From IMG/VR virus record IMGVR_UViG_3300014960_000001, positions 1 to 38,116 of that record: 38,116 bases of DNA; one strand, 5' to 3'. Position 1 is the stretch's first letter, and every line of letters starts with the position of its first letter. This document shows, piece after piece, positions 14,594-34,395 of this stretch. The position numbers were made by a program, and so were the translations under genes. Source of the DNA: a virus. The notes under the pieces are model-generated. The model worked only from the letters and a program-made list of their open reading frames with translations. It ran no database searches and was not told where the DNA came from.

Positions 14594-14622
14594 CTTATCC
14601 ACTACCGCGCAATAGGCGTAAA
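14594..14622 (-). promoter_or_regulatory. Candidate late promoter (PR'-like): TTTACG-N17-GATAAG
   Basis: The minus strand carries -35 TTTACG (plus strand 14617-14622) and -10 GATAAG (plus strand 14594-14599). The site lies between two terminators and downstream of a Q-like gene. Confidence 0.3.
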
Positions 14623-14644
14623 AAAACCACCGCGGTGGGTGGTT
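14618..14644 (-). terminator. Rho-independent terminator ending the cro-to-Q early operon
   Basis: The minus strand reads AACCACC-CACCGC-GGTGGTT followed by TTTTT. Confidence 0.65.
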
Positions 14645-15910: not shown

Positions 15911-16076
15911 TGTCCGGCGTCCGGGTGTCTGTAGACACACCCGGACACGGCGGACAGAATCCTTGGCGGAAATCCGGACAAACCGGACGAATCCGGACAC
16001 AACCGGACACTTAAAGCGGACACTAACCATGCTGTCCGCCTTGTCCGTTTTCGTCCGAATCGGACGTTTCCGGACA
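15911..16076. repeat. Iteron-like array of CCGGAC(A/G) heptamers in both orientations; candidate replication origin
   Basis: Direct copies lie at 15941, 15951(cggaca), 15974, 15983, 15993, 16003, 16016(gcggaca), 16060(tcggacg) and 16070. Inverted copies lie at 15911, 15918, 16033, 16042 and 16052. The four copies from 15974 to 16009 are spaced 9-10 bp apart. Confidence 0.6.
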
Positions 16077-18161
16077 CGCATCGATGCTCAATTCATAGGT
16101 CAGCGTGACGATTCCGGTGCTTGAAACGTTCACAAGATTCTTTGCAATTAGCGCGTCTCTGGTGTCGTAAAAACGGCGTCGGTCTGAAATCCCATGCTCT
16201 TTGCAGGCGTCCTTCCAGTCTTCTACTGTGATGACAGAATCTTCCATGCCATCTTTTGCGCGCCGATAGAAAATCGCTTCAAGAGCCAGGATCGCCTTCC
16301 TTTGATTCTGTTTTAGGCTGGCTAAAACATCCTTTGCCTGATCAACAATCCCGCTGATATCCACCGTCTCCAGCGCGGCGCCGAGAATTTCCTTGCCATC
16401 CTTTCCATGGATCCCGAGGCCGACTTGCTTGATATTGAAACGGCGCTCCAAAGGAATCTCGCCGTCCTTCATCTTCTTGTTGGTGAGGGTGATCATCTTC
16501 GTGCTGTCGTCCATATCGACCATGTATTCCTGATCGAGAGCGCCACGCAGGACGGTGCTGCCTCGGGCTTGTCCAGGGCTGGCCTTGCCGCTGTGATGGA
16601 CCAATAAAACGTGTGCCTTATAAGGCGACCGCAGCAGCGCGTCCAGGTGCTCGACAAAGCGCGCCATATCCGGCGTGCTGTTCTCGTCGCCGCCCATATT
16701 CCTGGCGACCGTATCAACGACGATCAGCGACGGCTGCTGGCCGGTTGATTCCACAATGTCGCGCACTGAATCGGCGACTTCATGGGCGGATGCAATGTCG
16801 AACAGCTGGCAGCTCCGCTGGCTCTTGTAGAAATTGACGCCGGCAAGGTCGGTGTTGTTGTGAATAGCCCAGGCACGCGCGCGCCGAGCGAAGCCGGAAT
16901 GACCCTCGCCGGCAATGTAGATAACGGCGCCCTGCTTCGTCTTGCAACCGTGCCAATCCTTGCCGGTGGCCACGCACAGAGCCATGTCGATCGCCACAAA
17001 CGATTTGCCTTTGCCAGGCTCACCGAAGGCCAAGCCAAGAGCGTCGGCCTCAAGGTAGCCTTCGACAATCCAGTCGATTTCCTTGATCTCTACCGAATCA
17101 ATTCGGATCAGCTCGAACTGGCGCTTGATGGTGGCAACCTCGATGCCAAGGCGCTTGCGTACCTCTTCGATTCCCAATGCCACATGGATGTCGTTCCAGT
17201 CGGTCGGCTTGCCGCTGATGCCTTCGGTATTGGGAACGATGACCTGGCCGCCGACCAATGCCGCGGCATCAGTGGCGTGCTTAACGCCTGGATTTGATCC
17301 ATCGGCATGCCACTGGTCATTGTCGGCCGCCAGAATGACGCGGCTGGTCGGATTGTGCTTGCGAGCGTATTCGGCCGTGCGTTTCAGGTTGCCCGTATCG
17401 AACGCCACATAGACATGGCTTCCTGTGGCTTCGGCCAACGTGGCTCCGGTCGCCCACCCTTCGCAGACATAAACAACCGCGCTGCTGCCGGGTATCTCAT
17501 AAATCCCCTTTGGCAATTGATACCAGTTTTTTTTCTCGCCATCGGGATAAATGCGCTGGATGCTGCACAGTTCGCCGGTTTCATCGTGCATCGGTATCAG
17601 CAGCTCGCCGTCGCCGTTGATCTTGATTCCTGGCGTCATCCGGACGGCCTTGCGCGTCACATAGGGATGGTCTGCCGGTGCTTCGGATGATCGGGCCAGA
17701 ACATCTAACGCCACCTGGATAGCGCTCTCGGCATTGCGCTTGCGCTCTTCCTCGCGCTGCTTCTTGGCATCTTCCATCCGCTTCCTGTTTTCCATCTGCT
17801 CAGAAAGCGAGAGCGTGGAGACAGAGCGCGCGCACCAGCTGGTGGCGATGCCAGTCTCGTAATCGCCGAACGATCCGGCAGGGATTCCATCCGGATAGAA
17901 CACATACCAGCCGTTTTTCTTCTTCGGCTTGCTGACGGTGGCGCACCGGACGATGCGTCCGGTGGCCTCGATGCCGTGCTTGATGACGAGGCCGGCAGCG
18001 GTAGCCGCGCGCTCGAAATCCATGGCGGCATTGAAGGTGCTGACTTCGGCTGGCGACATGGCAACCGAAGATGCCAGGAATCCGCCATTGAAGAATTGGG
18101 TGAGGTCGGTGGTGGACATCATCCGGCCGCCTGACTTGGGAACATGATTTCGCCCTTTCAT
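16023..18161 (-). CDS. Bifunctional primase-helicase (Toprim domain plus RecA-fold/AAA_25 helicase domain)
   Basis: Toprim-like motifs VCEGWATG ... AADND. Walker A motif GEPGKGKS with a DnaB/RepA-like C-terminal half. 712 aa; the start could instead be the MMST methionines. Confidence 0.75.
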   Translation of the reverse strand: MKGRNHVPKSGGRMMSTTDLTQFFNGGFLASSVAMSPAEVSTFNAAMDFERAATAAGLVIKHGIEATGRIVRCATVSKPKKKNGWYVFYPDGIPAGSFGDYETGIATSWCARSVSTLSLSEQMENRKRMEDAKKQREEERKRNAESAIQVALDVLARSSEAPADHPYVTRKAVRMTPGIKINGDGELLIPMHDETGELCSIQRIYPDGEKKNWYQLPKGIYEIPGSSAVVYVCEGWATGATLAEATGSHVYVAFDTGNLKRTAEYARKHNPTSRVILAADNDQWHADGSNPGVKHATDAAALVGGQVIVPNTEGISGKPTDWNDIHVALGIEEVRKRLGIEVATIKRQFELIRIDSVEIKEIDWIVEGYLEADALGLAFGEPGKGKSFVAIDMALCVATGKDWHGCKTKQGAVIYIAGEGHSGFARRARAWAIHNNTDLAGVNFYKSQRSCQLFDIASAHEVADSVRDIVESTGQQPSLIVVDTVARNMGGDENSTPDMARFVEHLDALLRSPYKAHVLLVHHSGKASPGQARGSTVLRGALDQEYMVDMDDSTKMITLTNKKMKDGEIPLERRFNIKQVGLGIHGKDGKEILGAALETVDISGIVDQAKDVLASLKQNQRKAILALEAIFYRRAKDGMEDSVITVEDWKDACKEHGISDRRRFYDTRDALIAKNLVNVSSTGIVTLTYELSIDACPETSDSDENGQGGQHG

Positions 18162-26212: not shown

Positions 26213-26538
26213 CCGGCCGCCGCGACTACCACTGGCAGCTCATTCGGATGCTCATGGACGGCGCCCAATTATCTGCTGCGCAGATCACCGAATCATTGGG
26301 CTGCAACCGCGGGAACACCGAGCGGATCATCAACAACATGCACCATCATGGCTTGATTTATGTGATCCGCTACAGCAGCACCGCCACCGCAATTCATCGT
26401 GTGTGGGCGTGGCGTGACGGCGATCAGGAAGATGTGCCGCGGCCAAATCGAGTGAGCAATTCGGATCGGTGCGCGAAGTATCGGTGGAATCAGAAAGTGA
26501 AGGCCGGCGAAGTGCGGCTGGGTGTGTGGGGGCTATGA
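26209..26538 (+). CDS. Winged-helix/HTH-like protein (109 aa) immediately upstream of the methyltransferase
   Basis: The LSAAQITESLGCNRGNTERIINNM segment looks like an HTH. ATGA coupling occurs on both sides. Confidence 0.5.
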   Translation: MTGRRDYHWQLIRMLMDGAQLSAAQITESLGCNRGNTERIINNMHHHGLIYVIRYSSTATAIHRVWAWRDGDQEDVPRPNRVSNSDRCAKYRWNQKVKAGEVRLGVWGL

Positions 26539-27482
26539 ATGAGCTGGCTCTTTTCGCAGGCGCTGGTGGCGGAATACTCGGCGGCCATCTGCTCGGATGG
26601 AGAACCGTCTGTGCCGTCGAGTTCAATTCCTACGCCGCAAGCGTACTGTGCGCCCGACAAAATGACGGAATTCTGCCGCCTTTCCCGATTTGGGATGACG
26701 TTCGCACCTTTGACGGACATCAATGGCGAGGGCGTGTTGATGTCGTTTCTGGAGGCTTTCCATGCCAAGACATCAGCATCGCTGGGGGGGGGGCAGGACT
26801 CTCAGGAGAACGATCTGGACTCTGGGTGGAAATGGCCCGGATCATTGGCGAAGTACGACCCAGCTTCGTGTTCGTGGAAAACTCGCCAATGCTCACTCAT
26901 CGAGGACTTGGCACCGTTCTCGGAGATTTGGCCGAGATGGGGTTTGATGCGAAATGGGGAGTTGTGTCTGCTGCCGATACCGGCGCACCTCACCTCAGAG
27001 AGCGAATCTGGATTGTGGCCGACACCCTGCGCGAACGAGCGGGGGGGGGGAATACACCAGGATCACACCTAAGTTTGACTAAAGCAGTCCACGGATGGAT
27101 CAAAGGGCGACCAGGACAAGCGAGAGAAGAATGCAGAATTCCAACACCAACCGTATGCGGGAATTACAACAGGAAAGGATCGTCACCAACATCGGGCGAC
27201 GGTCTGGCGACGTTCGTCAAGATGTTTCCTACGCCAACCGTAGCGATGACCAAAGGCTCATCGGGGGGGGCAATGACGAGAAAAACAGGACGCAGTCGAT
27301 CGAACGACAGATTGGATTACGCGACGGAAGGAGCGCATCCAGAGAATGGCCGCCTGAACCCGACGTGGGTCGAGTGGCTCATGGGGTGGCCGCAAGGGTG
27401 GACAGACTTAAAGCCCTTGGCAATGGGCAAGTTCCGCGAGTGGCAGCAACAGCATGGCAACTTCTCAGAGGTGAGTGAATGA
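26535..27482 (+). CDS. DNA (cytosine-5) methyltransferase, frame open as assembled (315 aa); reads through three poly-G tracts as Gly runs
   Basis: Motif I FAGAGG, motif IV GFPCQ (26757-26768), motif VI-like FVENS, motif VIII-like HLRERIWIVA. Then come IPTPT/FPTPT modules and the motif IX-like LNPTWVEWLMGWPQGWT. The motif X sequence is not in this frame. Confidence 0.8.
   Translation: MNELALFAGAGGGILGGHLLGWRTVCAVEFNSYAASVLCARQNDGILPPFPIWDDVRTFDGHQWRGRVDVVSGGFPCQDISIAGGGAGLSGERSGLWVEMARIIGEVRPSFVFVENSPMLTHRGLGTVLGDLAEMGFDAKWGVVSAADTGAPHLRERIWIVADTLRERAGGGNTPGSHLSLTKAVHGWIKGRPGQAREECRIPTPTVCGNYNRKGSSPTSGDGLATFVKMFPTPTVAMTKGSSGGAMTRKTGRSRSNDRLDYATEGAHPENGRLNPTWVEWLMGWPQGWTDLKPLAMGKFREWQQQHGNFSEVSE
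26539..27072 (+). CDS. Overprinted +1-frame ORF inside the methyltransferase gene (177 aa as assembled), candidate second protein
   Basis: Its own ATG lies 4 nt after the MTase ATG. The composition is protein-like rather than a typical shadow ORF (Trp/Cys/Phe/Asp/Glu/Lys present, few Arg). It ends in SGLWPTPCA just before tract 2, and the same module recurs in frame 0 downstream. Confidence 0.45.
   Translation: MSWLFSQALVAEYSAAICSDGEPSVPSSSIPTPQAYCAPDKMTEFCRLSRFGMTFAPLTDINGEGVLMSFLEAFHAKTSASLGGGQDSQENDLDSGWKWPGSLAKYDPASCSWKTRQCSLIEDLAPFSEIWPRWGLMRNGELCLLPIPAHLTSESESGLWPTPCANERGGGIHQDHT
26784..26793 (+). repeat. Poly-G tract 1 (G10)
   Basis: Counted directly: gct + 10 g + ca. It lies 15 nt downstream of the PCQ codons. 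Confidence 0.95.
27041..27050 (+). repeat. Poly-G tract 2 (G10)
   Basis: Counted directly: the block 27041-27050 is all g, flanked by c and a. Confidence 0.95.
27083..27478 (+). CDS. Third-frame ORF encoding the methyltransferase motif X C-terminus (ATG at 27095)
   Basis: The frame-2 translation ends ...WPPEPDVGRVAHGVAARVDRLKALGNGQVPRVAATAWQLL, which is the canonical GN.VP motif X context. A TAA at 27080-27082 separates it from the catalytic N-terminal half. Confidence 0.45.
   Translation, partial: SSPRMDQRATRTSERRMQNSNTNRMRELQQERIVTNIGRRSGDVRQDVSYANRSDDQRLIGGGNDEKNRTQSIERQIGLRDGRSASREWPPEPDVGRVAHGVAARVDRLKALGNGQVPRVAATAWQLLRGE
27263..27270 (+). repeat. Poly-G tract 3 (G8)
   Basis: Counted directly: tc + 8 g + c. 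Confidence 0.95.
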
Positions 27483-27556
27483 TCGAATTCATGGCATGGG
27501 TGCTTTTCATGGCCATCTTGTGTTTGGCGCTCTGGCTTTATGTGGTGTGCGAATGA
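27479..27556 (+). CDS. Hydrophobic micro-protein (25 aa)
   Basis: Translated by hand: MIEFMAWVLFMAILCLALWLYVVCE. ATGA-type overlaps occur with both neighbours. Confidence 0.3.
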   Translation: MIEFMAWVLFMAILCLALWLYVVCE

Positions 27557-27720
27557 AGCAGCACGAATACGACGACGACGGTTGCTGCATCCATTGCGGT
27601 TTCGACGGTGCTGAATGGCATTGGTGGAAGACATCCACCTACGAAGGGCGCGCCCTAGCCGGTGAAGAATGCGAACCGGGAGATCGAATCAAAGAACCAG
27701 AATGCGTTGAGCGAAAATGA
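27553..27720 (+). CDS. Small Cys-rich acidic protein (55 aa)
   Basis: MKQHEYDDDGCCIHCGFDGAEWHWW... It is in frame with track ORF 27475..27720. Confidence 0.45.
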   Translation: MKQHEYDDDGCCIHCGFDGAEWHWWKTSTYEGRALAGEECEPGDRIKEPECVERK

Positions 27721-34366: not shown

Positions 34367-34395
34367 AAAAAAAGCCACCGCATCGGGTGGCCTTG
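34367..34395 (-). terminator. Rho-independent terminator between the internal-virion genes and the tail-fibre gene
   Basis: The minus strand reads GCCACC-cgatgc-GGTGGC followed by TTTTTTTATT. Confidence 0.7.

Follow-up and report, generated by a model that had tools for sequence, protein, structure and literature searches.

Poly-G tracts in a dual-coding phage C5-cytosine methyltransferase gene as candidate contingency switches

The 38,116-nt stretch of DNA in the IMG/VR virus record IMGVR_UViG_3300014960_000001 (hereafter the window) carries a gene that is predicted, by the motifs I, IV, VI and VIII of its catalytic N-terminal half, to encode a C5-cytosine DNA methyltransferase (methylase), and this gene belongs to a very widespread family of dual-coding phage C5-cytosine methyltransferases. 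The relatives contain two full-length open reading frames (ORFs) on the same DNA, the methylase itself and a +1-frame ORF, here called P1, which starts from a second ATG located 4 nt downstream. This second ORF is conserved under selection in the alternate frame, and in the window it is interrupted at the second of three poly-G tracts. These three tracts are the only G runs longer than five nucleotides in the window, and every one of them lies inside the methylase gene. As the best explanation of the whole, to which we give slightly more credence than doubt, we propose that the tracts are contingency switches that break or re-wire the two-frame methylase gene. The idea is supported by the comparison of relatives, in which homologous tracts vary in length; for the lineage of the window itself, our searches found no close relative.

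A widespread dual-coding gene family

In the relatives, the methylase frame encodes motifs I-VIII, a linker and a C-terminal end with ...RVDRLKAxGNGQVP (motif X). P1 begins with MSWL..., followed by SWKTxQCSL, FSETWPRWGxMRNG, a series of PTP modules and the C-terminal motif LNPxWVEWLMGWPxGWTDLKPLxxDKFxxW. For classification of 165 viral and metagenome loci, four reference segments were mapped by tblastn and their relative frames were compared. The normal layout was found in 145 loci, 13 are of the window type, four have the opposite shift, one has a tandem arrangement and two are incomplete. Motif X is part of the same polypeptide as motifs I-VIII in 145 of the 165 loci, which is not so in the window as assembled. 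A preliminary description of the window, made from its sequence alone, had stated that the overprinted frame is the methylase frame plus one on both sides of the second tract; this rule holds for the window and for 163 of the 164 other classified loci. The exception, L013 (IMGVR_UViG_3300037067_007801, positions 1501-2613), carries three G tracts (G9, G10 and G9), has the P1-type and the motif-X ends in tandem in one frame (…VEWLMGWPVGWTSLEPL…DDEPEGVPRVAVGIPQRVNRLKAIGNGQVP) and contains stops in every frame as assembled. In L007, L009 and several other proteins a variant P1 tail …DLKPLEMAKSHSAQPQHG replaces …DKFQQWQQQHG, which looks like a compensating frameshift pair within the last 15 codons.

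An unbiased census was based on 80 species-representative genomes, which were picked by similarity of the methylase N-half alone and regardless of their C-terminal state. Both ORFs are intact in 67 of these 80 genomes, and in 77 of the 80 loci the gene is free of G or C runs of seven or more nucleotides. The hosts include Proteobacteria, Chloroflexi, Actinobacteria, Verrucomicrobia, Planctomycetes, Bacteroidota, Saccharimonadales and cyanobacteria. For the P1 family, at least 7,968 homologs were retrieved from the database and 38,523 cluster representatives reach E <=0.001; the homologs of the P1 N-half (P1_N) are full-length proteins with 50-57% identity. P1 matched no Pfam or NCBIfam family, and its homologs are mostly labelled ‘hypothetical’. 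PHROG 1008 (‘DNA methyltransferase’) does match P1, a label that gives no mechanism. Our literature searches returned no description of the dual coding of this family or of poly-G methylase switches in phages.

Several lines of evidence point to selection on both frames. When synonymous codons of the methylase frame were shuffled, about six stops were expected in the +1 frame and the probability of zero stops was 0.003 per locus, whereas zero or one stop was observed in 133 of 141 loci. The reverse shuffling test gave an expectation of about 10 stops. Moreover, fixed synonymous choices in the methylase frame serve P1. Codon 2 is AAT, which supplies the ATG of P1, in all 176 sequences that have Asn at this position (95% of 185), and the codon of Gly136 is GGG in 185 of 185 sequences, at GC contents of 47-67%. 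Likewise, Asn116 is encoded by AAC in 97% and Phe50 by TTC in 94% of the cases. In the N-half, amino-acid identity is 79% in the methylase frame versus 50% in the P1 frame. From motif VIII to the C-terminal end the order is the opposite, with 29.9% for P1 versus 15.6% for the methylase linker, i.e., about twofold. The methylase linker, 29 to 191 aa long and off-frame-like in its composition, is unconstrained.

Reading frames and G tracts in the window

Frames are counted from position 26469, and all features are listed in Table 1. Besides the three tracts, no G or C run in the window is longer than six nucleotides. The 8-mer GGGGGGGG, a word of eight G, has seven matches against 1.0 expected, and seven matches were reached in none of 100 dinucleotide shuffles. 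The preliminary description had located the tracts at the points where one frame hands over to the other, and these positions were right; its coordinates agree to within about 1 nt, except for the motif-X sequence, which it had placed at 27398 and which lies at 27395-27436.

The methylase N-half (MT_N) contains motif I (FAGAGGG), motif IV (GFPCQD), motif VI (FVENSP) and motif VIII (RERIWIV), and its profile matches M.HhaI and M.HaeIII in the Protein Data Bank (PDB). The 315-aa ORF as assembled is identical to the database protein P0001. Pfam PF00145 matches this ORF with E=6.5e-32 over residues 4-162 only. Both start codons overlap the stop of an upstream 109-aa ORF (TGA, 26536-26538), and therefore both proteins could be translationally coupled to the upstream gene. 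The ATGaATG arrangement is also present in relatives; in some of them (L005, L006, L012) the methylase starts with TTG or GTG and the ATG of P1 is kept.

Tract 1 as assembled is in phase for frame 0 and frame 1. Tract 2 as assembled joins MT_N to the C-half of P1, and because it consists of ten G, P1_N is cut off at the TAA at 27070. It had been claimed that frame 0 alone passes the region behind tract 2, which was verified, as frame 1 ends at the TAA at 27070 and frame 2 at the TAA at 27080. Downstream of tract 2, frame 0 encodes IPTP (27138), FPTP (27225) and then LNPTWVEWLMGWPQGWTDL. The length of tract 3 chooses the C-terminal end, since G8 leads to the motif-IX-like end and G9 to motif X, and both ends are intact downstream of this tract.

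Stop-free products of at least 280 aa were enumerated for lengths of 9-11 at tract 1, 8-12 at tract 2 and 7-10 at tract 3. This yielded exactly eight distinct predicted products, in agreement with the up to eight full-length mosaics that had been proposed. In the state as assembled (10/10/8 for tracts 1, 2 and 3) the products are the 315-aa protein with motifs I-VIII, two PTP modules and the motif-IX-like end, plus the 177-aa N-terminal fragment of P1. One further G at tract 3 had been thought to give a canonical methylase. However, the predicted 10/10/9 product contains motifs I-VIII, the PTP modules and motif X without the IX-like motif, and the methylase chain of the relatives has another architecture.

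Tract recurrence and length variation among relatives

Over the 165 loci, 30 G or C runs of at least eight nucleotides were found in 146 kb of gene sequence versus two in 382 kb of flanking sequence, which corresponds to 0.206 versus 0.005 per kb and thus to an enrichment of about 40-fold. The runs cluster at three offsets from the gene start. The first, at about 250 and just after motif IV, is the tract 1 site, where eight other loci have G8-G11. The second, at about 495-510, lies after motif VIII in the Gly/Pro stretch of the first PTP module and is the tract 2 site, with G12-G15 in one clade, C8-C14 in a separate clade and G7/G8 in another. The third, at about 860-895 in the last PTP module, is homologous to tract 3.

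At the tract 2 site, a search of IMG/VR with exact flanks (TGGCGCACTCCAGACAC-(N)-ACATCTGGA) returned 11 contigs. Both ORFs are normal with G10 (one contig) and G13 (three contigs). The three G12 contigs link the methylase N-half to the P1 C-half, like the window, and the three G14 contigs link the P1 N-half to the methylase C-end; another contig, with G13, breaks off before it can be classified. These eleven flank-identical contigs bear out the earlier claim that tract length decides which halves are joined. A Burkholderiaceae metagenome-assembled genome with the same flanks has G11 and the G14-type state. Similar pairs occur in the other clades: in the poly-C clade C12 is normal (L053) versus C14 shifted (L168 and L169, from different samples) with near-identical flanks, and G8 is normal (L206) versus G7 shifted (L227). 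The search with the poly-C flank pattern found one contig only. At the tract-3-like site, G10 is normal in L017, L019 and L022, and G8 in L274 leads to a chimera of P1-N and motif X. An initial impression that all G-tract relatives are in the hybrid phase was an artefact, because a hybrid protein had been used as query; the flank-based search shows all three phases.

The same query effect has to be kept in mind for the hybrid proteins themselves. Dozens of full-length hybrid-type ‘methylases’ that cover 97-100% of the window ORF were returned by a search with the window protein, including proteins of Pseudomonas chlororaphis, P. aeruginosa, E. coli and Acinetobacter soli isolates, and they are abundant there because the query itself is a hybrid; in the unbiased census hybrids amount to about 1 in 80. 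Chimeras are common because both frames are open. Their junctions lie mostly after motif VIII, and also before motif VIII (L166), near the C-terminal end (L005) or at the tract-1 site (database protein P0215). Every hybrid that was inspected has kept the methylase linker and motif X open and intact out of frame. We read most hybrids as frameshift variants that are reported as normal proteins by gene callers, and some may be functional.

The putative role of P1

C5 methylases of the M.AquI type consist of alpha and beta chains. A published precedent, the only one that our literature searches brought up, is M.EcoHK31I of E. coli HK31, a heterodimeric C5 methyltransferase for which two chains are needed: the alpha chain contains motifs I-VIII, motif X and the recognition domain, and the beta chain, with motif IX, is read from a different frame within the alpha gene (PMC2836561). 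According to this published description, M.EcoHK31I resembles the family described here in that a chain with motifs I-VIII and X is encoded in one frame and a chain with motif IX, or in our family a putative counterpart with a motif-IX-like end, in another. In contrast to M.EcoHK31I, the second ORF of our family spans the whole gene, starts 4 nt after the first one and contains PTP modules. The target-recognition region is located in alpha in M.EcoHK31I, whereas the alpha ‘linker’ is unconstrained here. Furthermore, the family consists of orphan phage and prophage genes across many phyla, unlike M.EcoHK31I, and a homopolymer switch is not described for M.EcoHK31I in PMC2836561.

A second comparison comes from the Arthrobacter phage Colucci (L252, MF185718, 645-2662). 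Its gp82, annotated as ‘DNA methylase’, corresponds to the N-half and stops after motif VIII, and gp83, a ‘hypothetical protein’ in the +1 frame, contains many PTP modules, LNPAFVEWMMGLEAGHVTD and then, in the same frame, motif X LKALGNGVCPQQA. The C-terminal motif of P1 aligns by hhalign with the gp83 motif that precedes motif X (probability 94.6%, E=7e-8), and therefore the C-terminal part of P1 would correspond to the part of a C5 methylase that comprises the recognition region plus motif IX. Colucci is thus like the family in that motifs I-VIII of the N-half, on the one hand, and the PTP modules plus motif IX, on the other, are in +1-offset frames, but unlike it the frames do not overlap over the full length, one frame contains motif IX and then motif X, and tracts are missing. 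Gp82 and gp83 represent either a split methylase or a methylase that needs a frameshift.

Because of the M.EcoHK31I precedent and the homology between the P1 C-end and the Colucci motif, P1 would most likely be the second subunit of the methylase, with the methylase chain as alpha and P1 as beta. As P1 is most likely a second subunit, tract slips would probably break a two-subunit enzyme instead of making eight useful isoforms, which is where we depart from the preliminary description.

Two overlapping ORFs of this kind have been annotated before. In the E. coli K1 phages (Kagunavirus; K1ind2, L250/L251, GU196280/NC_041898) ORF29, a ‘C-specific methylase’, overlaps ORF28, an ‘Mte8-like protein’ that matches the P1 C-half, and RefSeq names both K1ind2 ORFs ‘DNA methyltransferase’. 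The two ORFs overlap with a +1 offset as in our family; they are distant relatives at 30-38% identity, and, unlike in the window gene, the embedded ORF starts 88 nt downstream and tracts are absent. A functional interpretation of the overlap between ORF28 and ORF29 was not found in the literature searched. Separately, a -1 ribosomal slip at GAC-TTA-AAG that would join motif IX to motif X was considered and set aside, since Leu-Lys is encoded in both frames and forces this heptamer, so that its conservation is uninformative.

Proposed mechanism and alternative explanations

We propose that the G tracts, as homopolymers, are hypermutable and occupy recurrent hot spots of the methylase gene. Slipped-strand gain or loss of one G would move the two frames at the same time, and since neither frame has a stop anywhere in the gene, such a slip would re-join the halves into a long chimera without truncation. 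The 10/10/8 state is then a shifted one, in which the methylase N-half is fused to the P1 C-half, the P1 N-half is truncated and motif X is not translated. The assembled window allele is most likely a methylase-off or altered state, which suggests either the off or altered phase of a phase-variable system or a lineage in decay. The benefit might be bet-hedging, as methylation could protect the phage DNA from restriction enzymes that are blocked by methylation and expose it to methylation-dependent ones. Switching within a population, the two-subunit model and the bet-hedging benefit are what we infer from these comparisons.

Several observations weigh against this explanation. In the window, no tract-length combination restores the normal two-protein arrangement, as the TAA at 27080 blocks the normal methylase chain at any length of tract 2, and no single DNA state allows expression of both motif IX and motif X; together this looks more like decay than like a working switch. 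The expected co-variation of tract lengths and frames was seen at the homologous tracts of relatives. For the lineage of the window itself, a whole-window nucleotide search against known phages found no close relative and an exact search of IMG/VR with the flanks of its own tracts 2 and 3 gave no match. At the tract-1 site, five of five flank-matched contigs are in phase. The differences between G12 and G14 among metagenome assemblies may partly be sequencing or assembly errors, but such errors cannot account for the fact that the tracts exist, for where they lie or for their recurrence. With regard to P1, sequence and profile searches of the PDB with P1, its C-end and a hypothetical fusion of motifs IX and X found nothing significant, and the AlphaFold2 model of P1 is of low confidence (pLDDT 57.9, pTM 0.27). 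In the model of the window hybrid the N-domain is confident and the C-half reaches a pLDDT of 31-64. The subunit model is drawn purely by analogy, and the methylase chain alone might be active, with P1 doing something else.

A more far-reaching version of the contingency model, which we think improbable, is a phage epigenetic switch of a new type. Here, slips would re-partition the catalytic half among the recognition and C-terminal halves or a two-subunit form, so that a population would mix methylation states or specificities and hedge between restriction types.

An unlikely explanation, though the foremost of the competing ones, is that the tracts are mutational hot spots of no adaptive value, with the window allele as a frameshifted, decaying copy. 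The chimeric ORFs would then owe their length only to two frames that happen to lack stops, and they would have no function. The TAA at 27080, gained in the linker frame, and the normal chain that is thereby beyond restoration fit well with decay, as does L013 with its three tracts and stops in every frame. Frameshift chimeras free of homopolymers are also common, with scattered junctions (L005, L166, L167 and many proteins). However, the roughly 40-fold enrichment of tracts, at the same three sites in independent lineages and made of either G or C, is the signature of selected contingency tracts. In addition, both C-ends of the window are intact past tract 3, and the unused frame of linker and motif X is open over 100-150 codons in chimeric relatives.

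We consider programmed recoding quite unlikely, in which RNA-polymerase or ribosome slippage on the G runs produces several isoforms from one DNA state, among them chains with motif IX and chains with motif X, and the enzyme is active regardless of tract length; slippage at the level of transcription had been raised before. Programmed recoding would account for the intact and open motif-X frame in chimeric relatives, and in the window motifs IX and X would be co-expressed only by frame mixing at tract 3. Against it, a G or C run of seven or more is missing from 77 of the 80 census loci, in 67 of the 80 each ORF is intact from its own start, and the tract length is not fixed in the relatives (10 to 15), unlike that of programmed slippage sites. 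We know of no evidence of efficient slippage on G runs in the host of the window.

Very unlikely is the notion that the hybrid is the intended enzyme, a single-chain methylase with the N-half, the PTP target-recognition region and motif IX in cis, and that the tracts are incidental. Hybrid-type proteins are numerous, also in Pseudomonas, E. coli and Acinetobacter isolates, and some of them have interrupted tracts, e.g., PPSPP and PLPPPLP. However, motif X is missing from the hybrids and is retained, perfectly conserved, in the -1 frame, their junctions are scattered to the point that motif VIII is lost in L166, and their share of about 1/80 in the unbiased census is low. Finally, it is barely credible that the assembly contains a wrong homopolymer length and that the gene of the real phage is a normal two-ORF one: homopolymers are error-prone and one extra G at tract 2 would give a full-length P1, but the TAA at 27080 keeps the normal methylase chain out of reach whatever the tract lengths, and runs of G8-G10 are usually called right from short reads.

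Comparison with phase-variable methyltransferases

Phase-variable methyltransferases (phasevarions) and poly-G contingency genes occur in Campylobacter, Neisseria, Haemophilus and Helicobacter. For Campylobacter, poly-G phase variation has been catalogued (PMC6321876). The gene described here is similar to phase-variable methylases in that a homopolymer lies inside the methylase coding region, its length varies among close relatives, and the frame shifts with it. In phase-variable bacterial methylases the tract toggles one chromosomal ORF between on and truncated, whereas here the gene is phage-borne and dual-coding, every phase leads to a long chimera and two proteins are hit at once. Also unlike phasevarion genes, up to three tracts are located in one gene in the window. 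The finding thus combines two known things in a phage: methylases that are phase-variable by simple sequence repeats and C5 methylases whose alpha and beta chains are encoded in alternate frames.

Should the tracts prove to be real switches, phages would vary their own DNA methylation by the contingency-locus trick of bacterial pathogens, and a single slip would re-wire two proteins that share every nucleotide. The comparison also brings out a very large family of overlapping genes, nested in a phage methylase gene that is among the most widely transferred ones. With standard gene callers, either one frame only is annotated or frameshift chimeras are reported as normal proteins. The finding bears on phage genome annotation, on the interpretation of methylomes and on work with overlapping genes in general. 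Cultured test systems are available in Salmonella phage S9-5, Acinetobacter phage ABMM1 and the E. coli K1 phages.

Genomic setting

The phage contig of about 38 kb, which is identical to an entire JGI contig, encodes a portal protein, a large terminase, a major head protein, a primase/helicase, a Cas4-type exonuclease, a helicase and a tail fibre. In a whole-window search of a phage genome collection, the methylase gene (region 26400-27600) alone gave nucleotide matches, with 72-81% identity to phages of Acinetobacter, Salmonella, Pseudomonas, Ralstonia, Klebsiella, Microcystis and others. At the protein level, the methylase N-half has 70-84% identity to proteins in genomes of at least eight phyla, and the gene is unusually conserved and widely transferred.

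Table 1. Positions of the methylase gene, P1 and the G tracts in the window.
Feature	Position	Strand	Remarks
ORF as assembled, methylase N-half plus P1 C-half, without motif X	26535..27482	+	315 aa, ATG at 26535
Methylase N-half (MT_N), frame 0	26535..27020	+	PF00145; phrog_363; tblastn mapping
Double start ATGaATG	26535..26541	+	methylase ATG at 26535, P1 ATG at 26539
P1 N-half (P1_N), frame 1	26539..27072	+	177 aa; MSWLFSQ...GLWPTP
Tract 1, G10	26784..26793	+	after motif IV; AGGGAG in frame 0, LGGGQ in frame 1
Tract 2, G10	27041..27050	+	just past motif VIII, Gly stretch of the first PTP module of P1
P1 middle region, here in frame 0	27051..27262	+	PTP modules IPTPTVCGNYNRKG and FPTPTVAMTKG
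TAA ending frame 1 (P1_N)	27070..27072	+	downstream of tract 2
TAA in frame 2, the methylase linker frame	27080..27082	+	frame open here in relatives
Frame-2 ORF, methylase linker plus C-end (WPPEPDVGRVAHGVAARVDRLKALGNGQVPRVAATAWQLL)	27083..27478	+	matches to phrog_32758 and phrog_363
Tract 3, G8	27263..27270	+	last module of P1, KGSSGGAMTRK
Motif-IX-like LNPTWVEWLMGWPQGWTDL, P1 C-end, frame 0	27354..27410	+	residues invariant or nearly so in the family
Motif X RVDRLKALGNGQVP, including LGNGQVP, frame 2	27395-27436	+	unreachable from either start as assembled

The next-longest homopolymers of the window consist of T or A. A T8 run (17527-17534) falls within the primase/helicase ORF, which occupies 16023-18161 on the minus strand. 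Two runs of A7 (14620-14626 and 34367-34373) both precede ccaccgc.

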